64,000 bases of DNA, taken from the IMG/VR virus record IMGVR_UViG_3300030116_003110, positions 7,910 to 71,909 of that record, one strand, 5' to 3'. Under the pieces are notes generated by a model that saw nothing but the letters and a program-made list of their open reading frames with translations, was not told the origin of the DNA and did no database searches. Below are positions 3,839 to 61,740 of this stretch, in pieces. Position 1 is the stretch's first letter. Every line of letters starts with the position of its first letter. Source of the stretch: a virus. The translations under genes and the position numbers were made by a program.

Positions 3839-3849
3839 AATCAATAATT

Positions 3850-3857
3850 TATAAATA
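3850..3857 (+). promoter_or_regulatory. T4-type late promoter (gp55-dependent)
   Basis: Exact TATAAATA upstream of gp18. Confidence 0.85.
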
Positions 3858-3926
3858 TTATCGTTGTTTGAATGTATCTTATCATGGGTAACTTATTATT
3901 AATTCTAACGAAAAAGAGGAAGACCA

Positions 3927-5714
3927 ATGGCTTTTTTCACGCCTTCTTTGTCTCCAGCCGTAGTAACCCGTGAGATTGACCTCACTGGTATTGTCCCTAA
4001 CGTTGCAACATCGACGGGTGTTTTCGTGGGCAACTTCCGCTGGGGTCCGGTTGAAGAACCGACAGAAGTAGATAACGAGGCACGTCTTGTGTCCCTGTTT
4101 GCTTCTCCCGATACAAATAATACGGTAGATTTCCACACTGCCGCATATTTCACAAAATATTCTAATGAACTTTTTGTCATTAGAGAAGTCACATCTGTTG
4201 CTAGAAACTCGTACCATGTAGACTCCGATTCTTGGAGTGACGCATCTGGACGTGGTGCTAGACTTGTTAAGAACTCCACAGATTTTAACAACAATAAGAG
4301 TGCTATGGATTCTGATAAGCACAACTTTGTTGGTAAATATCCCGGCACACTTGGCAATGGTATTCAAATTCAGTTATGTTCTTTTGACGAAGGCGACTCG
4401 GCCTTTGAGACATGGGCATATAAAAATGAATTTGATGCTGCTCCCGGTACTTCTAACTTTGCTCAAGCTAGAGGTGGTACACTTAATGATGAAGTGCACG
4501 CTGTTATCATTGATAAAGATGGTAAGTTTAGCGGCACCAAAGGTGAAGTTCTTGAAACATATCCTTTCGTATCCCTCGCATCCAATGCTAAGAACGCAGA
4601 TGGCTCTACCAACTACATTGCAGATGTAATCAACAATGGTTCCAAGTATGTCTGGTTAGTAGACGCAGGAAACATTGATTCTGCATATGATGCAGCTGGC
4701 GCCGGTACTGATATTGTAGATTCTACTTCTACATATACTTTAACTGGTTCTGCACAGGGTATCAAGACAATCAATCTTACAAACGGTGTTAACTCTGGTG
4801 CACTCGGAACTTCTGAGATTGCAACTGGATTTGACCTGATTGAAGATGTTGACAAATATCAGGTAGACTTCTTGATTGCGCCACCAGAAACTGGTTCTAC
4901 CGCTGGTGACACAACTAATCTCGTTACTGTTGTAAATGATCTTACTTCTATTGCAGCTGTGACCAGAAAAGACTGTGTAGTAGTTGCATCTCCACCAAAG
5001 AATGCTGTAATTAATACTACAGACCCTGTAGGTGATACTGTAGCATTTGCTAACAGACTTACAAACAGTTCTTACTGTTTCTTAGATAATAACTATCTGA
5101 AAGTGTTTGACAAATATAATGATCAGTACATTGATATTCCAGCAAACTCTTCTACCGCTGGTCTGATGGCTCAAACAGACTTCTTGACTGCACCTTGGTT
5201 CTCGCCAGCTGGTACAAGAAGAGGTGTATACTTCGGTGTGACCGATGTTGCACACTCGCCTGTTAAGTCTGAAAGAGACACACTTTACAGAGCTAACGTC
5301 AACCCAATTACTAACTTGCCCGGTACTGGACTGGTTCTCTTTGGTGATAAGACTATGCTGCGCAGACCTTCGGCATTTGACCGAATTAATGTTCGCAGAC
5401 TGTTCCTCACAATGGAAAGAGCAATTGCCAGAGCTGCTAGACAAGTTCTCTTTGAGTTTAACGACGAATTTACTAGAGCAGAATTCGTAAATATCGTTGA
5501 ACCTTTCCTGAGAGAAGTTAAGGGTCGCCGTGGTATTACTGATTTCAGAGTAGTTTGTGACGAAACAAACAACACTCCTGAGATTATTGATCGCAATGAA
5601 TTCATTGCTACTATCTTCATTAAGCCTGCACGTTCTATCAACTACATCACACTGAACTTTGTTGCTGTTAGAACTGGCGTGGACTTTGAAGAAGTAGTTG
5701 GTCTGTCATTCTAA
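3927..5714 (+). CDS. gp18: Tail sheath protein gp18
   Basis: SPAVVTREIDLT, PWFSPAG, FDRINVRRLF, FEFNDEFTR, IKPARSINYITLNF. Confidence 0.97.
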   Translation: MAFFTPSLSPAVVTREIDLTGIVPNVATSTGVFVGNFRWGPVEEPTEVDNEARLVSLFASPDTNNTVDFHTAAYFTKYSNELFVIREVTSVARNSYHVDSDSWSDASGRGARLVKNSTDFNNNKSAMDSDKHNFVGKYPGTLGNGIQIQLCSFDEGDSAFETWAYKNEFDAAPGTSNFAQARGGTLNDEVHAVIIDKDGKFSGTKGEVLETYPFVSLASNAKNADGSTNYIADVINNGSKYVWLVDAGNIDSAYDAAGAGTDIVDSTSTYTLTGSAQGIKTINLTNGVNSGALGTSEIATGFDLIEDVDKYQVDFLIAPPETGSTAGDTTNLVTVVNDLTSIAAVTRKDCVVVASPPKNAVINTTDPVGDTVAFANRLTNSSYCFLDNNYLKVFDKYNDQYIDIPANSSTAGLMAQTDFLTAPWFSPAGTRRGVYFGVTDVAHSPVKSERDTLYRANVNPITNLPGTGLVLFGDKTMLRRPSAFDRINVRRLFLTMERAIARAARQVLFEFNDEFTRAEFVNIVEPFLREVKGRRGITDFRVVCDETNNTPEIIDRNEFIATIFIKPARSINYITLNFVAVRTGVDFEEVVGLSF

Positions 5715-7904: not shown

Positions 7905-8156
7905 ATGACTGAAATTGTTGATTTTTTAAATAATGTAACTACAAAGAACTTTGTTGACGCAGAAAAGCAATTCTCTGACTTGCTTAATGCTAGACTTACG
8001 ACTCGTTTAGATGATGAGAAAATTAAAGTTGCCAATCAAGTTTTTAACAATGTTACTGATGATGCTGATCCTGAAGAAGTTGAAGATGAAGTAGAACTGT
8101 CAACTGAGACAGAAGTTGAATCTGATGAAGGTGAAGAAGTAGCAGAAGAAGAATAA
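7905..8156 (+). CDS. Prohead core protein (gp67-like)
   Basis: Small protein with very acidic C-terminus directly after the portal gene. Confidence 0.7.
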   Translation: MTEIVDFLNNVTTKNFVDAEKQFSDLLNARLTTRLDDEKIKVANQVFNNVTDDADPEEVEDEVELSTETEVESDEGEEVAEEE

Positions 8157-19108: not shown

Positions 19109-20059
19109 ATGGACTATATTTCAATCTGGATGGTAGTAGGTTTCCTACTTGCATCCTATTCTGTTATCGCCAACGATTCTGTTCAGACGCTAGGAACATG
19201 GATCGCTTCCAATCAAAAAGTAAACAGAATGATTATGTGGGGTGCAGCGTCAGCAGTCCTACTCTTTACTATCTGGTTTGGCTGGTATAGCAATGGGGGA
19301 GATATCTCCTACGGCCGACTAAATAAAATCCCCTTCCAAGAAATTCAATGGTATCACGCACTGGCTCCAGCAGTACTTCTTGTACTGACTAGATTCGGTG
19401 TGCCTGTATCTACATCATTCCTTGTCCTGTCTGCATTTGCCTCTACGTTTATTCTAGAGAAGATGCTGGTCAAGTCGATCATGGGATATGCCATTGCTGC
19501 CGTATCCGCATACGGTATCTGGTTCGTTATCAGTAAACTCTTGGATGAGTCTAATCCTATCAAGGATGAACATAAAAAGTATTGGGTGGTCGCTCAGTGG
19601 GTAACTACAGGTTTCTTGTGGTACACCTGGCTCAGTCACGACATGGCAAACATTGCGGTGTTCCTGCCACGTCAAATCCCAATTGAAATGATGTTCGTTA
19701 TCTCTGTTATCTTTGTAGCTGGTCTATATTGGATGTTCAGAGAAAATGGTGGACGTATTCAGACTGTTGTATTAGAAAAACATAATACCCGTTATGTACG
19801 TTCTGCTACTATTATTGACCTATTCTACTTCTTGATTTTGTGGTTCTTCAAGGAGTTGAACGATATTCCAATGTCTACCACTTGGGTATTCATTGGTCTT
19901 TTGACAGGTCGTGAATTGGCAATCGCAAGCTTTACTCAGAAACGTAAGTTCCGTTCGGTCTTCCCACTTGTGGGCAAAGACTTCTTTAAGATGATGATTG
20001 GACTTGCCGCTTCTGTCGGTATTGTGATTCTAATTCATTCCCTGTTACAACCGCAATAA
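19109..20059 (+). CDS. Polytopic membrane protein, divergent PiT/PHO4-like phosphate transporter
   Basis: About 9-10 hydrophobic segments; repeated PiT-like signatures IANDSVQTLG / HDMANIA and PVSTS / PMSTT; coupled to pstS. Confidence 0.65.
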   Translation: MDYISIWMVVGFLLASYSVIANDSVQTLGTWIASNQKVNRMIMWGAASAVLLFTIWFGWYSNGGDISYGRLNKIPFQEIQWYHALAPAVLLVLTRFGVPVSTSFLVLSAFASTFILEKMLVKSIMGYAIAAVSAYGIWFVISKLLDESNPIKDEHKKYWVVAQWVTTGFLWYTWLSHDMANIAVFLPRQIPIEMMFVISVIFVAGLYWMFRENGGRIQTVVLEKHNTRYVRSATIIDLFYFLILWFFKELNDIPMSTTWVFIGLLTGRELAIASFTQKRKFRSVFPLVGKDFFKMMIGLAASVGIVILIHSLLQPQ

Positions 20060-20079
20060 TGTTCTTAAAGGAGAAAAAA

Positions 20080-21069
20080 ATGAGAGCATTTAATCTAATG
20101 ATTGCAATGTTCGTGAGTTTAATCGCCACGTCTACCGCAGTCGCTGATCGTGCCAACACTATTTCTATTGTTGGTTCTTCTACCGTGTATCCATTCGCCT
20201 CTGCTGTTGCAGAATCGTTTGGTGAAACCACGGATTTTGAAACACCTATCATCGAGTCTACCGGCTCCGGTGGTGGTATGAAGTTGTTTTGTGCAGGTAC
20301 TGGACTTTCCACACCTGATATTACTAACGCATCACGTCAAATGAAATCTTCTGAGGCAGAGACTTGTGCTGCCAATGGTGTAGAATTCGTTGAGTTCATG
20401 GTTGGTTATGATGGTATTGTCATTGCTAACTCTCTGAATGGTGGTCCTGCTCTGAGCATGACTCGTGAGCAAGTTGCTCTGGCAGTTGCAGCGCAGGTTC
20501 CAGATGCTAACGGTAATCTGATTGAAACCCCATATGAGATGTGGTCTGATATTGATGCATCTCTGCCTAATCGCCCTATTGTAGTTCTTGGTCCACCAAC
20601 TTCTTCTGGCACCCGTGATGCCTTTGAAGAACTGGTAATCCATAAAGCATATAAGGCAATGGGCTTTGACAAGGCAACTTACAAGTCTATTGAAATCCGT
20701 GAAGACGGAGCATATGTAGAATCTGGTGAGAATGACTCTTTGATTATTGACAGTCTCACTAAAGACGGCGATGCTGTAGGCATTTTCGGATTCTCTTTCT
20801 TACAGAACAATGCTGATCGTGTAAAGGGTGCAACAATTGATGGCGTAGAACCTACGTTTGAAAACATTGCATCTGGCGATTACCCTGTATCTCGTTCTCT
20901 GTTCTTCTATGTTAAAGCCAACCATGTTGGTGTAGTAGATGGCATTGCCGAGTATGCAGAAGAATTTGTCTTTCAAGCAGAACCTGAAGGTCGGCTGACT
21001 GATATCGGTTTGATCCCCGGTAATGATGCAGACCAACAAGCCATGTTTGAGGCACTGGAATCCCTCTAA
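20080..21069 (+). CDS. pstS: Phosphate-binding protein PstS
   Basis: Signal peptide; GSSTVYP, STGSGGG, NASR, SSGTRDAF, YPVSRSLFFY; start chosen after AGGAG. Confidence 0.93.
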   Translation: MRAFNLMIAMFVSLIATSTAVADRANTISIVGSSTVYPFASAVAESFGETTDFETPIIESTGSGGGMKLFCAGTGLSTPDITNASRQMKSSEAETCAANGVEFVEFMVGYDGIVIANSLNGGPALSMTREQVALAVAAQVPDANGNLIETPYEMWSDIDASLPNRPIVVLGPPTSSGTRDAFEELVIHKAYKAMGFDKATYKSIEIREDGAYVESGENDSLIIDSLTKDGDAVGIFGFSFLQNNADRVKGATIDGVEPTFENIASGDYPVSRSLFFYVKANHVGVVDGIAEYAEEFVFQAEPEGRLTDIGLIPGNDADQQAMFEALESL

Positions 21070-21080
21070 GGGATAGTTGG

Positions 21081-21113
21081 AAGGGGGGACTTCGGTTCCC
21101 CTTTCTTTTTTTT
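21081..21113 (+). terminator. Rho-independent terminator
   Basis: aaggggga-cttcgg-ttccccctt followed by a T tract. Confidence 0.85.
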
Positions 21114-21141
21114 AAAATATAAAACAAGGAAACTGCAAACC

Positions 21142-22245
21142 ATGCTAAAGAAAATCTTTGCATCTCTCGCCCTCTCCCTAGCAACTGCAACAGCTGCTTT
21201 TGCTGAAACCAAAGTAGGTTTCATCTATGTTGGTCCAATTGGTGACCTTGGATGGACTTACCGACATGACGTTGGCCGTCTTGCTGTAGAAGAAGCATAT
21301 GGACCAGACGTATCTACTTCCTACCTTGAAATGGTTCCTGAAGGACCAGAAGCAGTACAGGCTATTACCCAGCTGGCTGAAACTGGTCATGATATTATCT
21401 TTACTACCTCTTTTGGTTACATGGACGCAACTAACGAAGTTGCTGCTAACTATCCAGATGTAGCATTTGAACATGCTACTGGTTATATCCGTGACACCGA
21501 AAACATGGCAACCTTCTCTGCACGCTTCTATGAAGGTCGTGTAGTACAAGGTATGATTGCCGCTAACATGACTGAAACCAATAAGATTGGTTACATTGCT
21601 TCGTTCCCTATTCCAGAAGTAATTCGTGGTATTAACGCATTCATGCTGGAAGCACAGAAGCACAATCCCGATATTGAAGTAGATATCATCTGGCTGTATA
21701 CTTGGTTTGATCCTGCAAAGGAAGCAACCGCAGCACAAGCACTAATTGACGAAGGTGCTGATATCATTGTACAACACACTGACTCTCCTGCACCTGTACA
21801 GATTGCAGAACAGAATGGTGTATATGCATTTGGTCAGGCGTCTAACATGTCCCGTTTTGGTCCTAACGCACATCTGGTTTCTATTGTAGATGATTGGGAT
21901 TCGTACTACGTTGACCGTGTTGGTCAAGTAATGGACGGTACTTGGACTGGTGGCGATACTTGGTGGGGTTTCACCAAAGATGGTCAAGGTGGTGAAGTAG
22001 GCATGGTTGCTCTGGAAAGCTACAATGTTGCTGCTATGGGTGAAGAACTTGTAGAGGCTGCTATGGCGTTGGAAGCATCACTTGCTAATGGTGACCGTCA
22101 CGCATTCCCTTGTGAGGGTCTGCTGAAGCAGGATGGTTCTGTACCTGAAGATTGTGCCAATGGTGCTGATAACCTTGGTGACTGGCCAACTCTGTTGTCC
22201 ATGAACTGGTATGTAGCAGGTATTGACGCATCAGTACCTAACTAA
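21142..22245 (+). CDS. BMP-family ABC transporter substrate-binding protein (purine/nucleoside-binding type)
   Basis: Signal peptide; KVGFIYVGPIGDLGWTYRHD, IFTTSFGY, IPEVIRGINAF, TWFDP, QHTDS. Confidence 0.92.
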   Translation: MLKKIFASLALSLATATAAFAETKVGFIYVGPIGDLGWTYRHDVGRLAVEEAYGPDVSTSYLEMVPEGPEAVQAITQLAETGHDIIFTTSFGYMDATNEVAANYPDVAFEHATGYIRDTENMATFSARFYEGRVVQGMIAANMTETNKIGYIASFPIPEVIRGINAFMLEAQKHNPDIEVDIIWLYTWFDPAKEATAAQALIDEGADIIVQHTDSPAPVQIAEQNGVYAFGQASNMSRFGPNAHLVSIVDDWDSYYVDRVGQVMDGTWTGGDTWWGFTKDGQGGEVGMVALESYNVAAMGEELVEAAMALEASLANGDRHAFPCEGLLKQDGSVPEDCANGADNLGDWPTLLSMNWYVAGIDASVPN

Positions 22246-40509: not shown

Positions 40510-42021
40510 ATGAAAATAGTTAGTGTTGGGTCTAGTGGTCATGATGCTAGTTATGCATTTTTTGATACTGACCTAAAAGACCCTATAGAATTTGCTTCTG
40601 CTACTGAAAGATATAACAGAGAAAAAAAGTCTAAACATTGGCCCAAACAGTGTACAACTGCAATTCTCAATAGAGACTATGATATTATGGTTTCAAATCA
40701 GAGTAAAATGTTTGCACTTAAGTATTGCCCCAATGAAATACTTAACGAGATTTCACATTGGATGGACCACCATGAAGCGCATGTTGCTAGTGCTTTTTAC
40801 ACTAGACCTTGGGAATCCTATGAAGATACTGTAATAATGGTGATTGATGGTCAAGATGGTCCGAGCGTTAATCAAGGTTATAGTAGATTAATTTCAAATA
40901 GTATTTGGAAATATGATGGTGAAAAGTTTATAAAAATTCATGAAGATTTTTCTGCACATGGCGGGGTATATAAACTAATATCTGGCACTTGGCTTGGACT
41001 TGGACATAATCAAGAGGGTACTGCTATGGCGTTGCATGCTCTTGGAGAATATAATGAATTATATGCTGAGATGTATGAACATCTCAGACAACATCATATC
41101 GCTAAAAGAAACGATGTTCTTAGAAATTCTGATAAAAGATTTGTTTTTGATAAAACAGGTTTGAAAACAATTGAAAAATATTTTCCTAAAAAAGCACTGA
41201 GAGCGAAACATAATTTAGATTTAATACTTTCAAAGACTGATCCCAATTGGCAAGCAAATCTTGCTCACACTATGCAAAAAATTATTATGGATCATATGGT
41301 AGAATATGCCACTCTTGCAAGAAAACATGGTTCTAAACTTTGCTTTGCTGGCGGTGTTGCTCAAAATATTATGGGTAATAGTTTAATTCGTAATATATTT
41401 GACGATATGCATATGCCTTCTGACCCTACAGACGGCGGATTGCCTCTAGGTGCGGGTCTGCATGAGTGGAGTAAGTGCACAGGAAAAAATAGAATTAATT
41501 TGGATAATGCATACCTTGGTTATGATATCAAGCAAAATGTTAATCCTAAGCAAGTAGTAGATTATATTTTAAAACACAAAGTTTGTGGTATAGCTAATGG
41601 TAAAGCTGAATGGGGACCAAGGGCATTAGGTAATCGTTCTCTTATTGGTGATGTTAGATATGATATTAAAGATACCGTTAACAAAATTAAAAGAAGACAA
41701 TATTATAGACCTTTTGGTCCGGTAATCTTGGAAGAAGAATTTGACAAATGGTTTGAAGGACATACTAATGGGTATATGCAGTATGTGTGCAAACCAAAAC
41801 ATGAACACAAATCTGTTATTCATATAGATGGAACTTCCAGAGTGCAAACTGTTACTTCTAACTCAAAGTCTGTGATTAGACCTATTTTAGAAGAATATTA
41901 TGAACGCACTGGTGTCCCAATGCTTTTAAACACTTCCCTAAATATCAAAGGACAACCAATGGTAAATGATGAAAATCATGCCAGAGACTTTGAAAAAGAA
42001 TATGGGGTTAAAGTTTTTTAA
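40510..42021 (+). CDS. Carbamoyltransferase (NodU/CmcH family)
   Basis: GHDAS, ERYNR, HHEAH, AGGVAQN, EWGPRALGNRS, RPFGP, DGTSRVQTV, LLNTSLN. Confidence 0.92.
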   Translation: MKIVSVGSSGHDASYAFFDTDLKDPIEFASATERYNREKKSKHWPKQCTTAILNRDYDIMVSNQSKMFALKYCPNEILNEISHWMDHHEAHVASAFYTRPWESYEDTVIMVIDGQDGPSVNQGYSRLISNSIWKYDGEKFIKIHEDFSAHGGVYKLISGTWLGLGHNQEGTAMALHALGEYNELYAEMYEHLRQHHIAKRNDVLRNSDKRFVFDKTGLKTIEKYFPKKALRAKHNLDLILSKTDPNWQANLAHTMQKIIMDHMVEYATLARKHGSKLCFAGGVAQNIMGNSLIRNIFDDMHMPSDPTDGGLPLGAGLHEWSKCTGKNRINLDNAYLGYDIKQNVNPKQVVDYILKHKVCGIANGKAEWGPRALGNRSLIGDVRYDIKDTVNKIKRRQYYRPFGPVILEEEFDKWFEGHTNGYMQYVCKPKHEHKSVIHIDGTSRVQTVTSNSKSVIRPILEEYYERTGVPMLLNTSLNIKGQPMVNDENHARDFEKEYGVKVF

Positions 42022-44763: not shown

Positions 44764-45000
44764 ATGTTTGAAGTAATCTATCGTTTTACCAACATCAACG
44801 AACAGTTTGAAGATGTTCGGTGTGATGTGTTTGACACCATTGAAGAAGCTCGGGAGTACATTCTAGAGCAGTTTGATGGTTTGATTGAAGGCACTACCGA
44901 TGATGAAACTGGTAAAACTATGGTTGAGGAAGAAGGTTGGTACGAAAACTTCATTCTTGACAAATATGAGATTCGTAAGATGGAGGTGACTCTCAACTAA
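44764..45000 (+). CDS. Small acidic hypothetical protein
   Basis: ORF with FDTIEEAREY motif. Confidence 0.65.
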   Translation: MFEVIYRFTNINEQFEDVRCDVFDTIEEAREYILEQFDGLIEGTTDDETGKTMVEEEGWYENFILDKYEIRKMEVTLN

Positions 45001-45008
45001 TATAAATA
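45001..45008 (+). promoter_or_regulatory. T4-type late promoter driving the tmRNA
   Basis: Exact TATAAATA. Confidence 0.8.
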
Positions 45009-45012
45009 ATCT

Positions 45013-45285
45013 TGTTCGTTGATGAAGCGAGCGGAACGTATGCAGGACCGGGGGGCAGTACCCCGCTGGTCCACCATAAGGGTATCAAGGTATCTTTGTG
45101 ATGGGCCAGAACTAGGATCGACTGGTGCGGGATGTGAGTGGAGACAAACCGATTGATACCGTAAGTATCAAATTAAAGTAAGAGCAAACAATTATGTAGC
45201 TCCTTCTCGTTACGCTCTCGCAGCGTAATCTGAGTTGGGTTCGTATCGGGGAACCTAGAAACAGAAGGGGGGCAATATGCCCCCT
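45013..45285 (+). ncRNA. ssrA: Circularly permuted (two-piece) tmRNA; tag ANNYVAPSRYALAA; ends approximate
   Basis: Acceptor piece with T-arm CGGGG-GGCAGTA-CCCCG and CTGGTCC-A-CCA (ends 45076) precedes coding piece GGGCCAG-AACTAGGATCGAC (45103); G3.U70 pair; tag frame 45184-45228. Confidence 0.93.
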
Positions 45286-45292
45286 ACTCGAT

Positions 45293-45781
45293 TCAATTTG
45301 CTAACGGATTATCCAATGCTTCTTGGATTTGAGCAGACAACCTATCATCAACCTCTTTGATCTTTCTGTCTGTCTCACCATACAACGCATCACGTTTTCT
45401 ATCAAATCGTTCATCCGCTGCATCTATCATATCTCTGACTTCAGTTTCAGTTTCTCGCATATCATCTTCTAGTCTATCAACTAATGTTTCAATACGAGTA
45501 ACATCATCTTTCAAATCATTTTTAATCTGTCTGGCATAGTCAGTTGCTTGGATAACAGAGTCTTCTGTGCTAACCATCTTCTGCTCTATGACAGATAGTT
45601 GTTCTTGGAATCCGCTGAGATCAGGTGCTACATATGATTGGATCATTTCTTTCATGTCCATGTAGTCTTTGTAAACTTCAAAGCCACCATACAAACCACC
45701 CACAAGGGTTGATAGACCCATAGCAACAGCTACCATTCTACCACCCTTGAACTTGATCCCAGCAAATTCTATTTCTGCCAT
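45293..45781 (-). CDS. N-terminal TM plus coiled-coil protein
   Basis: Hydrophobic segment near residues 16-35, then long heptad-like acidic region. Confidence 0.8.
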   Translation of the reverse strand: MAEIEFAGIKFKGGRMVAVAMGLSTLVGGLYGGFEVYKDYMDMKEMIQSYVAPDLSGFQEQLSVIEQKMVSTEDSVIQATDYARQIKNDLKDDVTRIETLVDRLEDDMRETETEVRDMIDAADERFDRKRDALYGETDRKIKEVDDRLSAQIQEALDNPLAN

Positions 45782-45782
45782 T

Positions 45783-46109
45783 TTACTTCTTCATTCCTTC
45801 AATACCTTCCTTCGCATAGAATGCCGCTACAATAGCAGCAACCGATACAAAGTAAGTTGGGGCAATATCTTTTAGCAGACCAGAAGCAGTCTCCTGACCT
45901 ATGAGAGAGGATACAATAATAGCAAAAGGATAGAGCAGCATACCAGCAAGAGCAAACCACGCCATGCCTCTTTGAGCATCCTGTTTTTTATCGTCGTTTT
46001 CAATTTGGAGCATTCGCTCCGCTTTAGCCATTTCTTCATCTGTTACAATACCGTCGCCGTCTTCATCAAATTGATTGTAGATGGAATCTTTTTGTAACGT
46101 CTTAGCCAA
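45783..46109 (-). CDS. EF-hand-like, two-TM membrane protein (holin-like topology)
   Basis: DEDGDGIVTDEE loop followed by two hydrophobic segments. Confidence 0.75.
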   Translation of the reverse strand: MAKTLQKDSIYNQFDEDGDGIVTDEEMAKAERMLQIENDDKKQDAQRGMAWFALAGMLLYPFAIIVSSLIGQETASGLLKDIAPTYFVSVAAIVAAFYAKEGIEGMKK

Positions 46110-46347
46110 TGGAACCTCCTAAGCCTTGCATTGCTGATGTTAATTGTGGTGCAAAAGAAGATGCAGCCCACAGCATAAGTGCAATAGCACCTACACCGAT
46201 AACTACCCACTTCATCTTCATATCATCTACACTCATTTTAATACCAATAAGTTCATTACTCAAAATGCGCAGAGATAATTCCATCTTACCTTCTGGCATA
46301 TCAATTGGAACTTGTGGTTCCTGATTTGGTTTTTGCTCTTCAGCCAT
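46102..46347 (-). CDS. Small single-TM protein
   Basis: WVVIGVGAIALMLWAA; coupled to both neighbours. Confidence 0.7.
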   Translation of the reverse strand: MAEEQKPNQEPQVPIDMPEGKMELSLRILSNELIGIKMSVDDMKMKWVVIGVGAIALMLWAASSFAPQLTSAMQGLGGSIG

Positions 46348-46805
46348 TATTTTATTCCTTCATCTAAAATATCTTCTAAAATAACAACACCCTTGTTAAC
46401 CAGTCTTTCTCTATTGGAAAGGTGCATTGCTTGAATATCATCTTTATTTTGACCATGATATGCAACTGCATGGCCTTCTTCAATCATAACTTCAGTCAGT
46501 AGTTTCTTGTCTGGACTTACATAGAAGTCACCAAGAATTCTACCAAACTTACCTTTCATATCTTCACCGTCTTTTGCTGCAAATGTTTTCAGAATTACAT
46601 TTGATTGTAATAATTCTTTAACCCTTTCTTTTGCTGCAAGACCGAATAACTTTTCAACCGGATCACGGGTTCTAGATTCTGGTGTATCAATGCCCATGAT
46701 ACGAACACGTTCATTTTTGAGCCAAACACCAAACCCTAGATCAATGTCAACATCAACTGTGTCTCCGTCAACTACTTTGATCAAGTTTGCTTTATACTCG
46801 TACAT
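46347..46805 (-). CDS. Thermonuclease (SNase family)
   Basis: VVDGDT, RVRIMGIDTPE, GKFGRILG, EGHA. Confidence 0.9.
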   Translation of the reverse strand: MYEYKANLIKVVDGDTVDVDIDLGFGVWLKNERVRIMGIDTPESRTRDPVEKLFGLAAKERVKELLQSNVILKTFAAKDGEDMKGKFGRILGDFYVSPDKKLLTEVMIEEGHAVAYHGQNKDDIQAMHLSNRERLVNKGVVILEDILDEGIK

Positions 46806-46815
46806 TTTTTTACTC

Positions 46816-47262
46816 CTATTGAGGATAGAACTGCAACTGTCTGAGTTGCTGTATTTCTTGTTCTAATCTCATTACTTCTAATTGTTTCTTTCTTAATTCT
46901 AATTCATATAATCTATTGCAATCAATTCTTGCTTTTGGTTTTTGACCTAGTGGAATTGTTATGCGAGCAAAAATGCCTACATCACCCACTCTTTGTTCAA
47001 CATATCCGGCTAGAGGATCAGTGTATCCCCGGCCGACAATTCCGGTCACTCCAAACTCTAGGTTTGTAGCAGAACCAATTGCATTTGAGCAATCTAGATC
47101 ACCAGCTCTGAACTTGTCTGATTGATAATTACCGGGAGCGGAAGGTAGAGACAAGTTTAATGAACTGGACTGTCCAAATGCAACTGTACTTGCAATCAAA
47201 ATAAAAAATAATGATAACAAAAACATTCTTATGAAATTATAATGTATCATACTTTTGAGCAT
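46816..47262 (-). CDS. Exported protein with amphipathic beta-strands and C-terminal coiled coil
   Basis: Signal-like hydrophobic N-terminus; two Cys; LEFGVTG and GIFARITIPLG strands. Confidence 0.75.
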   Translation of the reverse strand: MLKSMIHYNFIRMFLLSLFFILIASTVAFGQSSSLNLSLPSAPGNYQSDKFRAGDLDCSNAIGSATNLEFGVTGIVGRGYTDPLAGYVEQRVGDVGIFARITIPLGQKPKARIDCNRLYELELRKKQLEVMRLEQEIQQLRQLQFYPQ

Positions 47263-47621
47263 ATCCTACTGTTAATACCAGATGATAATTCATTATCAAC
47301 TAATAGTCTTGACGTGGTACAGATATATTCAATTCTGTCACAATCAACTTCTCTAATATAAATGTCAATTTGTTTCTGTTCCAAATACCCCACTTCAATT
47401 AATTGTTCTGAAGCAGCAAATGGTACAGGATTCCATTCTTCATCATAAACATCAATTGCATAGTATTCTACCTCTTTTCTCTTATTAAAGAGTTTCATTT
47501 TGGTCACCACAATTCCATCCATAAAAGATGGTTCAAACTTGGGATAGGTTGGTGTCCATTCATGAGCATGTGCGGTAGTGACCATAAAGGCCGCCACCAC
47601 CGCAGAGATAAAATATTTCAT
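47247..47621 (-). CDS. Exported beta-rich protein (possibly pilus-chaperone-like Ig fold)
   Basis: Signal peptide ending AHA; TP..KLFN..YAIDV pattern; C-terminal Cys pair; TAATG coupling. Confidence 0.6.
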   Translation of the reverse strand: MKYFISAVVAAFMVTTAHAHEWTPTYPKFEPSFMDGIVVTKMKLFNKRKEVEYYAIDVYDEEWNPVPFAASEQLIEVGYLEQKQIDIYIREVDCDRIEYICTTSRLLVDNELSSGINSRICSKV

Positions 47622-48118
47622 TAATTGGCAATGCACTCTGCTGTAATATTAGCAGTGTAGTCACCGCCGGGGAAAGATTTGTCATAACCATAGGTCACAC
47701 TGGATTCTACCTTGAACCAAGTAGAACCTGCAACCGTAAGATCAAATTCAGTAACATTGTCGTATTCTACTTTTGCAGCTTCATAACCAGACATACCAGC
47801 ATCTGATGTAGAAGATACAGATACTTCTCCGTCCCAATTCAAAGCATCACTTAAGGATGGAGATGTAGCAAATTCATTTGGCCAACTAATTTTAGCAGTA
47901 TAGTAGTCTGCAACTGTAACATCATATCTTACCACCGGATCAACACCACCCTTGATTGGGTCGGTATCTAATTCATCAGGGGCTGGGTTTCCATATACAC
48001 CAGCAACGTCTGTGTAGATAGTACACTTAGAGGAAACGTTACCAGTAATGGGAATGTTTTCTGCAAAAGCAGGTGCTGCTACAGCAAAGGCAACAGCGGC
48101 TGAGATAACTCTTAACAT
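47621..48118 (-). CDS. Exported beta-rich protein (possibly fimbrial/pilin-like)
   Basis: Signal peptide ending AFA; ITGNVSSKC N-terminus; FPGGDYTANITAEC C-terminal strand. Confidence 0.65.
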   Translation of the reverse strand: MLRVISAAVAFAVAAPAFAENIPITGNVSSKCTIYTDVAGVYGNPAPDELDTDPIKGGVDPVVRYDVTVADYYTAKISWPNEFATSPSLSDALNWDGEVSVSSTSDAGMSGYEAAKVEYDNVTEFDLTVAGSTWFKVESSVTYGYDKSFPGGDYTANITAECIAN

Positions 48119-48129
48119 TTAATTCTCCG

Positions 48130-49041
48130 TTATTGGTCTCTATCATATTGAGAGCGTACCATAGAATAATGTGTAGCATCTGATGCTAGTTGTCTCAACG
48201 CCCTGTTATTATCAGGTAATGTTGTGTCTTCTAATTGTAGAGTATCTGTCAGTTCTAAAACGTCTTGATATTCTACTTCATAGTATGGTTCAATCGTAGG
48301 TTGACTTGCCAGTTGGATTAGAATGCTGTCTTGTAGAGCAACATCAATTAAACCACCAACGTTTGGATCAACCATAAAACTTTTTTCTAAATTTTCTTCT
48401 TCTTCAAATTCTTCATTTTCATTTTCAGCCTGTTCTTCTTCAACTTCAGTTTGTTGCTCAAGTTGAAACTGTACCCATTCATCATAATATGGATCATCTA
48501 CTGAAACATCTTCAAGAGAAGCTAAGTATTTATACAAAGCATCCAAATATCCGGGGCATGTTGGGTCCGATAATGGTGTAGTACATATAATCTGTTCTTC
48601 ACCAATATCCATTTTATACAAGTAAATAACAGAAGCGTCACTTACTGTTCCATTACCTTCAATGGTAATACTACCATCGCCCCAATTGACTGCATCACTT
48701 TCTGTGAATCTGAAATATTTTTTGATAGAGTTTCCGGGTAAACCGGACCAATCATCTACTTCCTCAAAAATATAGCCACCATTTGTCGCATCTTCATTAC
48801 GCACATAAACCTGAACATCTTCAGCAGGGTCTTTAGACATGACATAATAATATGTTAACCCATTGATCTGCAACGATACATGTGGTGCAGAGTGGTCGGG
48901 TAAAACATCACCCATTGTCCATGCTAGAGCATTTGCGGCAGCGTTGTTAGTTACGCCGTAAACACTATCCGCCCAAGAGAATGGCGAGCAGACCAAGGAC
49001 AACAGCACCGCCAATGATGGTAGTGCGAGTTTCTGGATCAA
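48130..49041 (-). CDS. Exported protein with CxxPLSDPTCPGY motif and acidic linker
   Basis: Hydrophobic N-terminus, beta-rich domain, Glu-rich stretch. Confidence 0.75.
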   Translation of the reverse strand: MIQKLALPSLAVLLSLVCSPFSWADSVYGVTNNAAANALAWTMGDVLPDHSAPHVSLQINGLTYYYVMSKDPAEDVQVYVRNEDATNGGYIFEEVDDWSGLPGNSIKKYFRFTESDAVNWGDGSITIEGNGTVSDASVIYLYKMDIGEEQIICTTPLSDPTCPGYLDALYKYLASLEDVSVDDPYYDEWVQFQLEQQTEVEEEQAENENEEFEEEENLEKSFMVDPNVGGLIDVALQDSILIQLASQPTIEPYYEVEYQDVLELTDTLQLEDTTLPDNNRALRQLASDATHYSMVRSQYDRDQ

Positions 49042-49564
49042 TGTTCATTCCTCTACTACTTTGTGGAGAGTCTGGACGCTTATATTCGTTTTCAGGGTCT
49101 TCCCATGCAGACTTAGCTTCTTCACCAATTGTACCATCAATGGGGCAAGGTGTCCCTGCATCCATCATAGCTTGGAAGACTCTTGGGTCTTGACACATAA
49201 CTGATACTGCGGCTACTTTCATGCCCATATCGTATAGTAGACTTGCATTCTTGAGTTTTTCGCAATTCATGTCTCTTACTGTAGAACCAGCGGAGATACC
49301 AAGAATTTGCGTTTGCACTGCACCTGATACACCAACTGTGCATAAGTCGGATGTTGAATTATTGATGCTTGGAGAAATTGCAGATGGTGGTGGAGATATT
49401 ACCGTTGTAGTTGAATCACTAGTAGAAGTTACTGTGCTAGTGGTTGTATTTTCTGTTACAATCGGATCAACATCAGAAGTTGTAGTTGTAGTTGTTTCAT
49501 CTTGCGCATATGCTGCTGTAGCCAAAAACAACATTACAAAAGCAGCAAACATTTTTTTAATCAT
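48965..49564 (-). CDS. Exported, C-terminally anchored Cys-containing protein
   Basis: Signal peptide ending AYA, Thr-rich linker, PPPSAISP, four Cys, C-terminal TM. Confidence 0.8.
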   Translation of the reverse strand: MIKKMFAAFVMLFLATAAYAQDETTTTTTSDVDPIVTENTTTSTVTSTSDSTTTVISPPPSAISPSINNSTSDLCTVGVSGAVQTQILGISAGSTVRDMNCEKLKNASLLYDMGMKVAAVSVMCQDPRVFQAMMDAGTPCPIDGTIGEEAKSAWEDPENEYKRPDSPQSSRGMNIDPETRTTIIGGAVVLGLLAILLGG

Positions 49565-49594
49565 GGTGTTTGCCTTGGATTATGAATTGTCTTT

Positions 49595-49602
49595 TATTTA
49601 TA
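49595..49602 (-). promoter_or_regulatory. T4-type late promoter for the minus-strand operon
   Basis: tatttata is the reverse complement of TATAAATA, 30 nt before the first ATG. Confidence 0.85.
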
Positions 49603-49670: not shown

Positions 49671-49805
49671 ATGGCCGTCAAAGGTGTAAAACAGGGACAC
49701 TCTAGTCCGCACAGCCGCACTTCTATTGGCAAATCCCCCAACTCTAAACCTAAGAATAAGTCTAAACGTCGCCAGTGGAAAGCATACAACAAACAAGGAA
49801 AATAG
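49671..49805 (+). CDS. 44-aa highly basic protein
   Basis: AAGGAG RBS; MAVKGVKQGHSSPHSRTSIGKSPNSKPKNKSKRRQWKAYNKQGK. Confidence 0.75.
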   Translation: MAVKGVKQGHSSPHSRTSIGKSPNSKPKNKSKRRQWKAYNKQGK

Positions 49806-50852: not shown

Positions 50853-51204
50853 GACTTTGAAAGAATGGGATGACTGGAAGGTTGTCGGTGTAGAACCAAC
50901 AAACGTCAATGGTAAAGTTTCTGATTGGGGTATTCATGTACTCACTGGTCAGTACAAGGATACTGTAGTTGTCATAGGTGAGTTGTCAATTGAAGAGGTT
51001 GACAGTGATGAGCAAGGTGTGTTATCATTTGACTATGATATTTTTCATAACCCGCATGATATCCCTCTTGGGGAAGATGTAGATTTTGAAAACATGGTTG
51101 GCGATATTGTTGCCTCAACACTCAAGACCGCACTAGATGAAGGGAACGCAGTCCTAGATGTCAGAGAACCTGAACAAGACCATCCTACGATCACTCTTGA
51201 CTAA
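50842..51204 (+). CDS. Hypothetical protein at the gp40 position
   Basis: Between uvsX and gp41, as gp40 is in T4; acidic; positional inference only. Confidence 0.55.
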   Translation: MSFETLKEWDDWKVVGVEPTNVNGKVSDWGIHVLTGQYKDTVVVIGELSIEEVDSDEQGVLSFDYDIFHNPHDIPLGEDVDFENMVGDIVASTLKTALDEGNAVLDVREPEQDHPTITLD

Positions 51205-52528
51205 TGAAGAGTATCTTAGGAAAGTTGTACCATTTCTAAAACCAAACTACTTTGAAGGTTCTCTGAAGGTAATCTTCAAACAGGTTGCGGCATTTGTAGA
51301 TAAGCATAACACCTTACCTACTCTGGAAGCATTTCGTATTGACCTTGAACAGAATGAGAAAATCTCAGATGATATGTTCACAGAAGTCTCTGCTTTGCTT
51401 CCAGAGATTTTTTCTCCTGTAGATATTGACCAAGACTTTCTACTAGAGAAAACTGAGAACTGGTGTCAAGAACGTGCCTTGCATATTGCTATCATGGAAT
51501 CTATCAATATCCTTGATGGTAAAAGTGAAACCATGACCAAGAATGCCATTCCAGAAATTCTTTCTGAGGCTCTTGGTGTTGGTTTTGATAACAATATTGG
51601 TCACGATTATATTGACAATGCTGAAGACCGTTATGACTTCTACAATCGTGTAGAAGAAAAACTTCCTTTTGATATTGAAAACTTCAATAAGATCACCAAA
51701 GGTGGACTACCTGATAAGACACTGAACATTGCACTGGCAGGGACAGGTGTAGGTAAGTCTCTGTTCATGTGTCATGTTGGTGCTAATGCATTGCTGCAAG
51801 GCAAGAACGTTCTCTATATCACTATGGAGATGGCTGAAGAACGTATTGCAGAACGCATTGATGCTAACTTGCTGGACATTCCTATTGATCAGTTGGATAA
51901 ACTGCCAAAGACTATGTTTACTGAGAAGGTAAATACTCTGGCAAAGAAAACTGTAGGTAAACTGATTGTAAAAGAATATCCTACAGGTGCTGCTCATGTT
52001 GGACACTTTAGAGCATTAATGAAAGAACTGAAACTCAAACGTTCTTTTGTTCCTGATATTGTGTTTATTGATTACCTCAACATCTGTGCATCTTCTAGGA
52101 TGAAGTCTATGGGTGGTGCTATCAACTCCTATACCTACATCAAAGCCATCGCTGAAGAACTGCGTGGTCTTGCTGTAGAGTTTGAAGTACCTATTGTCAG
52201 TGCTACTCAGACAACCCGTTCTGGTTACACTAACTCTGATCCCGGTCTAGAAGATACCTCAGAATCATTTGGTCTTCCTGCTACCGCAGACTTAATGTTT
52301 GCTCTGGTGTCAAATGAAGAACTAGAACAGTCTGGTCAGATTATGGTGAAGCAACTAAAGAACCGTTACAATGACCCCAACAAATACAAGCGGTTTGTTG
52401 TAGGTATAGATAGGTCTAAGATGCGTCTCTATGATGTAGACCCTGTAGATCAAACTCTTGTAGATGACGGTATCCCCGTCTTTGATAAAACTCCAGCTGG
52501 CGATAAATTTAAGGATTTTAAGATATGA
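51158..52528 (+). CDS. gp41: Replicative helicase gp41
   Basis: AGTGVGKS, ITMEMAEE, IDYLNI, SATQTTR, SESFGLPATAD, KQLKNRY. Confidence 0.97.
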   Translation: MSENLNKTILRSLLTNEEYLRKVVPFLKPNYFEGSLKVIFKQVAAFVDKHNTLPTLEAFRIDLEQNEKISDDMFTEVSALLPEIFSPVDIDQDFLLEKTENWCQERALHIAIMESINILDGKSETMTKNAIPEILSEALGVGFDNNIGHDYIDNAEDRYDFYNRVEEKLPFDIENFNKITKGGLPDKTLNIALAGTGVGKSLFMCHVGANALLQGKNVLYITMEMAEERIAERIDANLLDIPIDQLDKLPKTMFTEKVNTLAKKTVGKLIVKEYPTGAAHVGHFRALMKELKLKRSFVPDIVFIDYLNICASSRMKSMGGAINSYTYIKAIAEELRGLAVEFEVPIVSATQTTRSGYTNSDPGLEDTSESFGLPATADLMFALVSNEELEQSGQIMVKQLKNRYNDPNKYKRFVVGIDRSKMRLYDVDPVDQTLVDDGIPVFDKTPAGDKFKDFKI

Positions 52529-58886: not shown

Positions 58887-59522
58887 ATGAAATATCTTAT
58901 TTCCGCAATTGTAGCTCTTGCTGTAGCTACTCCTGCAATTGCTCAAGAAGGTGCCAGTGAATCCGCTCTTATGTCCAACGCAACCGTAGGCGTATCTACT
59001 GACTTAGAAGGTAACGCAGACTGGACGCTGGGTGCAGAGTTAGGAATTGGCGGATTCGGTGTAGATGCAGGCTTCACACTTCAAGACCGTGGTGACAATG
59101 CTGCTGATGACTATGCAATTAGTCTTGGTACAGGCATGGACCTTGGTTTTGCTTCCCTTGATACCAGCATTGGTTACGCTTGGGGTGCAACTTCCGGCGC
59201 AGACCTGATTGGTCGTGGTGACGGCAATACTTGGGGTGATGTAACTCTTGACCCAACACTGTCCATTACTCCCGGCATTATTGGTGGTGAGTACATTTGG
59301 GTAGGTGGTTCTATGGACCTCGCTTCTGACGGCGAAATCGCTGTTGGCTGGGGCGGTGCTTCCTACGGATTTGGTTACGAGCATGCACTGAACGATAAGG
59401 CTTCCGTATCGGTTAGCTACGGTTGGTCTGTAGATGTGGTTGACGATGGTGACGACACTACCGTTAATGACTGGACCACTACCGCTGATGGTCTGAAAGT
59501 TGGCGTAGGCTTCAAGTTCTAA
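58887..59522 (+). CDS. Outer-membrane beta-barrel (porin-like) protein
   Basis: Signal peptide ending AIA, alternating amphipathic strands, C-terminal GLKVGVGFKF. Confidence 0.85.
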   Translation: MKYLISAIVALAVATPAIAQEGASESALMSNATVGVSTDLEGNADWTLGAELGIGGFGVDAGFTLQDRGDNAADDYAISLGTGMDLGFASLDTSIGYAWGATSGADLIGRGDGNTWGDVTLDPTLSITPGIIGGEYIWVGGSMDLASDGEIAVGWGGASYGFGYEHALNDKASVSVSYGWSVDVVDDGDDTTVNDWTTTADGLKVGVGFKF

Positions 59523-59919: not shown

Positions 59920-61740
59920 ATGGTTAGTGGATTTAAACAGTATCTGGAAGAAAAATCTTCTGTAGGATATTTTGCATTTGGTAGGTTCAATCCGCCTACT
60001 ACTGGACATGAAAAACTTATTACAAAAGTCGCCTCTTTAGCAAGGGGTAATGACTATAAGATTTTTGCATCCCAATCGGTTGATGCCAAGAAAAATCCTT
60101 TAGAGTATAGAACAAAAGTAAAGTTCATGCGTAAGATGTTTCCCAAGTATGCACGGAACATCATCATGGAAACTTCTGTCAAAAACTTCCTTGATGCAAC
60201 TATGTACATGTACAAGCAAGGATACAAAAACCTTGTTATGGTTGCTGGGGATGACAGAGTACAAGAATTTCAAAAACTCCTTACCAAATACAATGGTGTA
60301 GATTCACGTCATGGTAAGTATGAGTTTGACTCCATCAAAGTTGTATCTGCTGGCGAGCGTGACCCTGATGCAGATGATGTAACAGGTATGTCTGCTTCCA
60401 AGCAAAGAGAGAATGCAAAGAACAATGACTTTGCCAAGTTTTCTCAAGGTCTTCCAAAAGGCGTATCTGATCAGTTAGCAAAGCAACTGTTCAATGCTGT
60501 TCGCAAAGGAATGAACCTTAATGAAAATACAACATTTACTAGACATATTATGTTGGAGACAGTTTCAGAAAGACGTGAGGACTATGTTAACGGCGAATTA
60601 TTTACTGTCGGCCAGCAAGTTGTACTAAAAGAAACAGACGAAGTTGTAACTATTGATCATTGTGGCGCAAACTATCTTATTGTAGAAGTAGATGGTAAGA
60701 AGAAACGTAAGTGGTTGACTGATGTAGAACCACTAGAAGAAAAAGTTTCTCAGTCACAAATCAATGACTTAGAAAGATTTGCTGATAAATTACTTGCAAA
60801 GTATGATATTGATATTGAGTTTACTAGACACTTTGTTGACAGAGTAAACGACGCAAGAAATAATCCTGAGATTAAGATTGCAGAACTACAGAAGTTCTTC
60901 AAGAAAATCCATAAGGCAAAAGGTAATAAAATCAAATCTGTAGGTGATATGCAGGCTGTTCTCAAAGATGTTGAGAAAGACCTAAATATTCCTGCTGTTC
61001 TTCAAGACAAAGGAAAGGATTTTGAAGTGAGATTTAAAACAATCATGAGAAAAAAAGACTTCAAGACTCCTAATAAGGTCATTACATATGAGCAAAAGGT
61101 TGCACAAGACCCTGATGTAAAAGACAAAAAGGGTACACAACCTAAGAAGTATTATTCTGGTTTAGCAAAGTCTACTAAGTCTGCTAGAGATGCACACTTT
61201 AAGAAGGGTGCTAAGATGGATGATGACAATCCAGCAGCGTACAAGCCAGCACCGGGCGACAAAGAAGCAGAGACTAAACCTTCCAAGTACACAAAGAAGT
61301 TTAAGCAGATGTATGGTGAGGCAGTTTCTCCTGCACAGCAGGCTGCTATTGCCATTTCTAAAAAAGAACGTGGTGAGAAACCAAAGAATGAAGGTGATGG
61401 TCTTTGGGCAAACATTCATAAGAAACGCAAAGAAGGTCGTCCTATGCGTAAACCCGGTTCAAAAGGCGCACCTACTGCACAAGACTTCAAGAATGCTAGA
61501 GGCGAAGAAACCATGAATGAAGAGGAAAAGAAAGGACTTGCTGCTAAGGCAGAAAAGTCTGGCGTTTCTCTGAGCATTCTTAAGCAAGTATACAACCGTG
61601 GCATGGCTGCGTGGAGAACTGGACACAGACCCGGCACAACTCCGCAGCAATGGGGCATGGCTAGAGTTAATTCGTTCTTAACAGGTGGTAAGACTAGACG
61701 TACCGCAGATAAAGATTTATGGGCAAAGGTGAAAAAGTAA
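59920..61740 (+). CDS. HxGH-type cytidylyltransferase-like protein with multiple C-terminal modules (last one DUF5824-like)
   Basis: FGRFNPPTTGHEKL, KNPL, VAGDDR, SAGERDPD..GMSAS; C-terminal VYNRGMAAW..GHRPG..QWGMARVNSF. Confidence 0.8.
   Translation: MVSGFKQYLEEKSSVGYFAFGRFNPPTTGHEKLITKVASLARGNDYKIFASQSVDAKKNPLEYRTKVKFMRKMFPKYARNIIMETSVKNFLDATMYMYKQGYKNLVMVAGDDRVQEFQKLLTKYNGVDSRHGKYEFDSIKVVSAGERDPDADDVTGMSASKQRENAKNNDFAKFSQGLPKGVSDQLAKQLFNAVRKGMNLNENTTFTRHIMLETVSERREDYVNGELFTVGQQVVLKETDEVVTIDHCGANYLIVEVDGKKKRKWLTDVEPLEEKVSQSQINDLERFADKLLAKYDIDIEFTRHFVDRVNDARNNPEIKIAELQKFFKKIHKAKGNKIKSVGDMQAVLKDVEKDLNIPAVLQDKGKDFEVRFKTIMRKKDFKTPNKVITYEQKVAQDPDVKDKKGTQPKKYYSGLAKSTKSARDAHFKKGAKMDDDNPAAYKPAPGDKEAETKPSKYTKKFKQMYGEAVSPAQQAAIAISKKERGEKPKNEGDGLWANIHKKRKEGRPMRKPGSKGAPTAQDFKNARGEETMNEEEKKGLAAKAEKSGVSLSILKQVYNRGMAAWRTGHRPGTTPQQWGMARVNSFLTGGKTRRTADKDLWAKVKK

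Follow-up and report, generated by a model that had tools for sequence, protein, structure and literature searches.

What does a T4-like phage gain from a block of late genes whose products all appear to leave the cytoplasm? The question is raised by five tightly packed minus-strand genes in the IMG/VR virus record IMGVR_UViG_3300030116_003110, a 71.9-kb sequence with an estimated completeness of ~40%, of which the 64,000 nucleotides from position 7,910 to position 71,909 were analysed here (the window). An earlier note, made from the letters alone, had described these genes as a late operon of exported proteins that assembles a surface fibre from a pilin, a chaperone, a tip and a small outer-membrane pore. 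We find that the genes keep their order across related viruses, that a sixth conserved gene follows them, and that a core of three recurs in phages of Pelagibacter and Roseobacter. Our tentative preference is for a module that spans the periplasm and takes part in lysis. The elements in question are as follows.

49595-49602, minus strand: late promoter motif of T4 type, TATAAATA, ~30 bases ahead of the ATG that opens the first gene, g199
48965-49564, minus strand: g199, 199 residues
48130-49041, minus strand: g303, 303 residues, TTG start
47621-48118, minus strand: g165, 165 residues
47247-47621, minus strand: g124, 124 residues from the ATG, or 129 residues from an upstream GTG at 47636
46816-47262, minus strand: g148, 148 residues
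45293-45781, minus strand: g162, 162 residues, with a membrane anchor at the N-terminus, then a coiled-coil region, and N-P-L at the C-terminus

The window belongs to the genome of a T4-like myovirus. Almost all long open reading frames (ORFs) here run along the plus strand, apart from those of a single minus-strand island at 45293-49564, where the GC skew reverses. Within this island the five genes from g199 to g148 abut or overlap one another, the most extended case being that of g199 and g303, whose ORFs share 77 nt (48965-49041; 59-101 nt across all 54 complete related loci). Read in two frames, the same 77 bases encode the C-terminal membrane helix of g199 and the signal peptide of g303.

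Synteny of the module is strict. Scanning IMG/VR with g165 yielded 61 related loci at 55-79% identity, 54 of which carry all five genes in the same order; the other seven are cut by a contig end and none is rearranged. The neighbourhood is thus co-conserved, as the earlier note had expected. Downstream, g162 is found in 46 of the 46 loci that have at least 3 kb beyond g148, and it lies within 150 nt of g148 in 21 of 50. The module extends beyond five genes, and g162 is its sixth conserved member; the five packed minus-strand genes lie where they had been placed, and the operon drawn around them was too short.

Copies of TATAAATA are more frequent in the window than chance would give, with 13 observed against 4.69 expected, a number reached in none of 100 shuffles. 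The motif stands within 120 nt upstream of the first module gene in 34 of 55 related loci, though the flanking sequence differs; in the remaining 21 a co-directional gene of 287 residues directly abuts the first module gene upstream. The late-promoter motif proposed for the head of the operon is in place, but a second copy lies inside the g303 gene (48527-48534), and one internal copy occurs in 23 of 54 related loci, so that a single late promoter is not certain. The 287-residue gene (positions 3716-4579 of locus L008, and 20 further loci) has a product that starts Met-Cys and weakly matches AAT, an N-terminal-nucleophile acyltransferase (E 0.005). Five related records yielded no T4-type lysozyme, so this protein could be a candidate wall hydrolase.

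Exported proteins and their folds

All five N-termini, as read directly from the translations, pass from a charged stretch through a hydrophobic one to a small-x-small site, with predicted cleavage at AYA/Q, SWA/D, AFA/E, AHA/H and AFG/Q. The hydrophobic segment is retained among full-length homologues of each protein (g199 54/55, g303 60/60, g165 57/59, g124 57/57 and g148 55/55), and the signal-peptide-like N-termini that had been proposed for the five genes are confirmed by this n-h-c layout and its persistence. None of the five signals carries a lipobox Cys. A crude hydrophobic-segment screen flagged 11 of the 86 non-overlapping ORFs in the window, four module genes and g162 among them; the g199 ORF had been removed by the overlap filter beforehand. 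Conserved Cys pairs of periplasmic type are present in all five proteins, and the cysteines and terminal motifs quoted earlier for g303, g165, g124 and g148 are real and conserved in the alignments of these families.

No part of the module carries a family name. Searches of Pfam, PHROGs and NCBIfam matched none of its proteins to a named family, and the PHROG matches obtained were to families of unknown function only (phrog_20531 in the case of g199). Blastn of the module region returned uvsX matches only, and tblastn against 50,697 phage records gave no match for g165, g303 or g124.

The first protein, g199, consists of a signal peptide, a Thr/Ser-rich stalk, a four-Cys core (about residues 55-160) and a C-terminal hydrophobic anchor, the last of these retained in 56 of 56 homologues. 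Its core domain occurs in at least 7998 metagenome protein clusters. Homologues of g162 occur in at least 7930 metagenome clusters; the N-terminal hydrophobic helix is present in 47 of 47 full-length homologues, the long helical region gives many weak matches to coiled-coil families, and the C-terminal N-P-L motif is invariant in the alignment.

In g303 a signal peptide is followed by a jelly-roll, a disulfide loop, an acidic helical linker and a conserved C-terminal helix, and the Cys pair C153/C162 is invariant in the alignment. The AlphaFold2 model places the jelly-roll at residues 25-146 with long helices after it, and the structural matches of this domain are to viral capsid, TNF-like and Ena jelly-rolls, not to PapD.

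The product of g165 combines a signal peptide, a conserved N-terminal segment of 12 residues and a beta-sandwich closed by the C32/C162 pair. In its model (23 sequences, pLDDT 84) the sandwich extends between Cys32 and Cys162; the 12 residues ahead of it, which are strongly conserved and alternate in pattern, are loose in the monomer. The G-x-Y motif at the C-terminus is conserved in the alignment. Not one of 1475 homologues has a Pfam domain. Searching 1.84 billion representatives with the g165 profile gave 120 proteins at E<=1e-3, about ten of which are distantly related over their full length and retain the N-terminal motif together with an F-P-x-G-x-Y tail. These relatives have no Pfam family and no cluster names, and single-protein scans with them of genome, viral and metagenome contigs produced no matches. 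Judging from the model, g165 appears to be a generic beta-sandwich whose likeness to pilins is weak and inconsistent. A three-copy complex prediction with mature g165 reached a median score of 0.39 against a mark of 0.42, which we count neither way. Profiles of g165 and g303, run against the sequences of the PDB, gave nothing meaningful.

The two remaining proteins are smaller. g124 has a signal peptide, is beta-rich, and contains the Cys pair C101/C121 and an invariant His at its predicted mature N-terminus. A copper 'histidine brace' suggested by that His was considered and dropped, because the CopC and DUF1775 models gave no match and the alignment holds no second invariant His. g148 has a signal peptide, two strands of alternating polarity, the Cys pair C58/C115 and a C-terminal helix with heptad or coiled-coil character; it has weak matches in Vibrio siphophages (E 5e-3), and an Atlas search for it returned unnamed viral clusters only.

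A core trio in Pelagibacter and Roseobacter phages

The four-Cys core of g199 matches 13 phage records: six of Pelagibacter, two of Roseobacter, two of Ralstonia phage RSP15 and three uncultured viral records. A same-strand trio recurs. Its first member is a g199-like protein; the second is a long, acidic exported protein that begins with a beta domain and continues through an acidic linker to a closing helix; the third is a short g162-like anchor in which a membrane helix at the N-terminus leads into a coiled coil and the sequence ends with N-P-L. Mosig, HTVC033P, HTVC023P, HTVC115P and CRP-810 all carry the three genes in this order. The anchor is firmly related to gp49 of Pelagibacter phage HTVC115P (43% identity, E 1e-32) and to gp51 of Roseobacter phage CRP-810 (hhalign 93.6%, E 2e-7). 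The latter (L064 5162-5584) bears the record annotation 'lysozyme', a label that looks unsupported because the protein is a g162 homologue without a PHROG match. For HTVC033P gp44 and Mosig_00200 the g162 profile gave weak results (hhalign 3% and 16%), and their kinship to g162 therefore consists of the shared layout and the N-P-L only.

The neighbours of the trio are usually lysis genes, coding for endolysins or holins. In Pelagibacter phage Mosig a GTA_holin_3TM match (E 1.6e-5, above the cut-off) lies directly upstream of it, HTVC033P has an annotated lysozyme at a distance of three genes upstream, and in HTVC023P an annotated peptidase M15 comes directly after the g162-like gene. CRP-810 has a gene pair upstream that encodes a membrane helix and a lipoprotein. 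In HTVC115P the trio is followed by gp47-gp45 (L067 5639-9393), which encode a 685-residue Gln/Asn/Ala-rich protein, an HlyC-like protein annotated as a toxin-activating lysine-acyltransferase, and a 417-residue protein; the 685- and 417-residue proteins have no Pfam match.

For a wider count, 80 viral loci were fetched with HTVC023P gp45. The order of the trio is kept in 39 of the 39 loci having at least 3.5 kb downstream, a synteny that overstates independence because the 80 podovirus loci are mutually related. Among the 32 loci with both flanks, an M15-like gene lies within 1.5 kb after the g162-like gene in 16 and a gene like HTVC033P gp50 within 1.5 kb upstream in seven; one or other of these probed lysin types lies within 1.5 kb in 23 of the 32 flanked podovirus loci.

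Possible roles at the cell envelope

The role to which we lean, without great confidence, is that of a lysis-linked module, so far undescribed, that spans the periplasm without a lipoprotein and works like a spanin. This reading is drawn from what is observed: the export signals, the Cys pairs of periplasmic type, the late-promoter motif, the strict synteny and the shared core trio. At least six late genes would send their products by Sec export to the periplasm of a Gram-negative marine host, where they would act jointly on the envelope as infection ends, most likely as a lysis accessory. In this arrangement g162 would sit in the inner membrane with its coiled coil reaching into the periplasm, while the C-terminal helix would anchor g199 and the Thr-rich stalk would lift it. 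The beta-sandwich proteins g303 and g165 may bind wall or outer-membrane glycans, and g148, by its amphipathic hairpin and coiled coil, would extend as far as the outer membrane and partner g162. Once the wall had been cut, the bridge would destabilise the outer membrane or set the timing of lysis, and would do so without the usual lipoprotein partner. The core trio would also serve the podoviruses of SAR11 and Roseobacter, with g165, g124 and g148 as probable additions specific to the T4-like lineage.

A lipoprotein-free bridge is proposed because g162 has the layout of an i-spanin, g199 has the topology of a unimolecular spanin (u-spanin), and no lipoprotein partner lies nearby. In the two-component spanins (lambda Rz/Rz1; T4 PseT.3/PseT.2) the i-spanin is a membrane helix followed by a helical periplasmic domain, as the available text of a spanin survey describes it (PMC6139136). 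By its sequence g162 is likewise a type II inner-membrane protein, with an N-terminal helix and a helical, coiled-coil-like domain predicted for the periplasm. Two further likenesses are that g162 homologues adjoin endolysin or holin genes in Pelagibacter-type podoviruses and that the partner proteins of the module contain conserved periplasmic cysteines. Also in favour of a lysis role, no rival parts turned up: no classical lipoprotein ORF lies near g162, and the T4-lysozyme family is missing from the five related records, which leaves the lineage without another recognised lysis machinery. With u-spanins of the T1 gp11 type, whose topology the available part of the same survey also sets out (PMC6139136), g199 shares the export signal at the N-terminus, a periplasmic portion that is mostly non-helical and a membrane helix at the C-terminus. 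It departs from them in that its signal is of the signal-peptidase-I type without a lipobox Cys, and in its four invariant periplasmic cysteines, where that portion of the survey gives none for 58 u-spanins (PMC6139136). The g199-like proteins of Mosig, HTVC033P and HTVC023P moreover lack the C-terminal helix.

Several points weigh against a spanin-like role. The case for lysis is one of guilt by association, and we infer both the contacts among the module proteins and their activity. These proteins resemble no spanin family, lysis PHROG or Pfam family; their number, at six or more, far exceeds to our knowledge the needs of any spanin system, and where a two-component spanin has one exported partner the module has three to six. 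The lipobox-bearing o-spanin partner of such systems has no counterpart here, as no ORF with a lipobox-type signal was found near g162 (44800-46400, minus strand). Neither probed lysin is present in nine of the 32 flanked podovirus loci, and the relatedness of those loci noted above lowers the value of their synteny. In the T4-like lineage the module has no adjacent lysin at all among those sought: the T4-like loci and this 72-kb record have no homologue of the probed lysins or of the Mosig holin near it. The available text of the survey notes that T4-like phages do not keep their lysis genes in a cluster (PMC6139136). The acidic member of the trio is also poorly tied to g303, which aligns with HTVC115P gp53 over the C-terminal 34 residues only (hhalign E 0.0018, probability 15%) and whose profile, like that of g148, shows no similarity to HTVC033P gp45 in hhalign.

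An unlikely alternative is that the module remodels the envelope for exclusion or receptor masking. Exported proteins of glycan-binding-like character would coat or alter the wall or outer membrane late in infection, so that superinfecting phages are blocked or progeny are kept from sticking to debris. In its favour, all parts are exported, and the sandwich folds of g303 and g165 weakly resemble adhesin-like or carbohydrate-binding-like folds. The trio of CRP-810 lies just after tail-fibre genes, a position presumably shared by lipoproteins that mask receptors, T5 Llp and Cor among them. Coinfection avoidance, too, is discussed as a theme in the available text of the pelagimyophage papers (PMC7029224). 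Known exclusion proteins, however, are single, small and often early, whereas the present genes form a six-gene late operon with membrane anchors, and the recurrent endolysin and holin neighbours of the trio would be left unexplained.

The surface fibre of the earlier note now seems quite improbable. It would have g165 polymerise by strand exchange with the help of a small periplasmic chaperone and leave the cell through an oligomeric outer-membrane exit formed by g148. As a small Sec-exported beta-sandwich whose N-terminal segment is conserved, whose first Cys comes early and whose C-terminus bears a G-x-Y motif, g165 does resemble the subunits of chaperone-usher pili (type 1, P, Caf1, CFA/I, Csu), and the alternating 12 residues before Cys32, unstructured in the monomer model, would suit a donor strand, as would the retention of the N-terminal and F-P-x-G-x-Y motifs in the distant relatives. 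Its Cys pair, unlike theirs, joins the N- and C-terminal strands. The PapG pilin domain, CfaB, Caf1 and CsuA/B head its Foldseek list, but not significantly (best E 3.8e-3, TM 0.42/0.53, none at E<=0.001), and no chaperone-usher pilin was among the matches listed in either run of the VIA comparisons. Against ten subunits in profiles built from the fim, sfm and yad genes of E. coli K-12, the widened g165 family reached an hhalign probability of 80% over 37 columns, a figure that comes mostly from the signal peptides because it drops to 1% (E 0.056, 17 columns) once these are cut; only the N-terminal motif around the first Cys then aligns.

The other parts of a pilus fare no better. PapD_N is the nearest named Atlas cluster to g124, at 0.83 and thus below the tool's 0.9 line, but the hhalign probability of the g124 family with the K-12 chaperones FimC, SfmC and YadV is 0.3%, and g303 is a jelly-roll, not a PapD-like pair of Ig domains. 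The PapD_N, Fimbrial (PF00419), SCPU (PF05229), CsgG (PF03783) and CsgF (PF10614) models found nothing in the record at E<=10. Usher (PF00577) was absent at E<=1 from all five related records, two of them near-complete at 91% and 100%, a result that covers viral records only; the Secretin and CsgG models were likewise without a match in the five. Control genomes respond to the Pfam models applied to the record, and E. coli does so to Usher. The module thus has neither usher nor two-domain chaperone, nor Pfam or profile similarity to such systems, and the core trio recurs in lysis cassettes. The pilin and chaperone roles, and with them the part-by-part pilus assignment, are accordingly on the whole unsupported; of the original proposal, an undescribed exported late system survives, in that the genes are co-conserved, headed by a late promoter and without a named family.

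A precedent for a fibre exists in the curli (type VIII) secretion modules of pelagiphages, which the available text of three papers discusses as a lysis-timing pore or a 'sibling capture' fibre (PMC9004378, PMC9599517, PMC7029224). They are the nearest published example, for these hosts, of an envelope or secretion system encoded by a phage, and the module is like them in being a multi-gene Sec-dependent envelope system of marine myo- and podoviruses that is absent from the host. It is unlike them in its different, unnamed gene set and its lack of curli repeats, with no CsgG or CsgF in this record and no CsgG in the five relatives.

That the N-termini stay uncleaved and the products are late tail or baseplate accessories would fit the late-promoter motif and the place of the podovirus trio in the structural half of the genome, but it is highly improbable given five consecutive n-h-c signals with small-x-small sites kept across divergent homologues, conserved Cys pairs that point to an oxidising compartment, the lack of a match to any structural PHROG, and the assembly of virions in the cytoplasm.

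Neighbouring genes and wider meaning

Between g148 and g162 the island holds three further genes, and beyond the module promoter lie uvsX and a helicase gene.

46347-46805, minus strand: staphylococcal-nuclease-like gene (Pfam SNase 8.8e-13; phrog_452 endonuclease)
46102-46347, minus strand: g81, an 81-residue protein with one hydrophobic helix
45783-46109, minus strand: g108, 108 residues, with an EF-hand-like N-terminus and two hydrophobic helices
49809-50852, plus strand: uvsX, a T4-like marker
51158-52528, plus strand: gp41-type helicase, a T4-like marker

The nuclease-like protein has no signal sequence. Its gene is probably not a member of the module, because only some of the related loci carry it within the operon, and many of the 61 lack it or have it at another place. 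g81 lies close to the module in some of the loci. g108 gives weak matches to Phage_holin_3_6 (E 0.0096) and to EF-hand, and its topology may be called holin-like; in the complete 219-kb relative L047 a homologue (EF-hand 7.7e-5) comes immediately after the g162 homologue.

On the plus strand, thyX-like and DNA-polymerase genes accompany uvsX and the helicase, and the closest cultured UvsX is that of Phage C48C1 (65% identity). Between the module promoter and uvsX lies a strongly basic ORF of 44 residues with a good ribosome-binding site (49671-49805, plus strand). It is 44% identical over 36 residues (pairwise E 7e-9) to HTVC115P gp50, which sits immediately before the g162 homologue of that podovirus, and because of this resemblance the small basic protein seems to travel with the module.

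Other parts of the window also encode proteins that may act at or beyond the membrane. Three successive plus-strand genes at 19109-22245, where G+C is raised to 0.44, have signal-like N-termini: one of 336 residues matches PBP_like_2 (PstS-type phosphate binding, 2.6e-46), one of 367 residues matches Bmp/PnrA (a nucleoside-binding lipoprotein family, 5.7e-54), and one of 316 residues matches no family. By sequence they look like exported auxiliary uptake genes. A 211-residue protein with a signal peptide (58887-59522, plus strand) has a weak OMP_b-brl match (E 0.006, below the cut-off) and may be a candidate phage-encoded outer-membrane protein. A Nol-like carbamoyltransferase (40510-42021, plus strand; phrog_1601, 2.5e-76) and a 606-residue cytidyltransferase-family protein (59920-61740, plus strand; phrog_3041, 1.2e-97) are probable sugar- or surface-modifying auxiliary genes.

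No description of the module was found in the literature searched, and the pelagiphage genome papers, in their available text, assign no function to its genes. It is very common, as the metagenome clusters of the g199 core and of g162 and the homologues of g165 indicate, and its trio is present in cultured phages of SAR11 and Roseobacter. The available text of the spanin survey reports no spanin in 91 of 677 phages, including some with marine hosts such as the Synechococcus phages Syn5 and Syn9, and makes no mention there of Pelagibacter or Roseobacter phages (PMC6139136).

A broader proposal, which we put forward as possible though doubtful, is that abundant marine phages share a lipoprotein-free, Sec-exported, periplasm-spanning machine that replaces spanins in disrupting the outer membrane. 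The phages meant are T4-like myoviruses and the HTVC023P-, HTVC115P- and HMO-2011-type podoviruses of SAR11 and Roseobacter. The core of the machine would be the g162 anchor, the four-Cys stalked protein and the acidic jelly-roll, to which T4-like phages would have added a pilin-like sandwich, a small partner and an outer-membrane piece made of a hairpin and a coiled coil. If the trio is indeed the missing outer-membrane step of lysis, it would offer a testable answer, in culturable hosts, to how progeny are released from streamlined marine bacteria. If the genes instead form a fibre or an exclusion system, they would join the curli modules of pelagiphages as a second envelope system encoded by phages.

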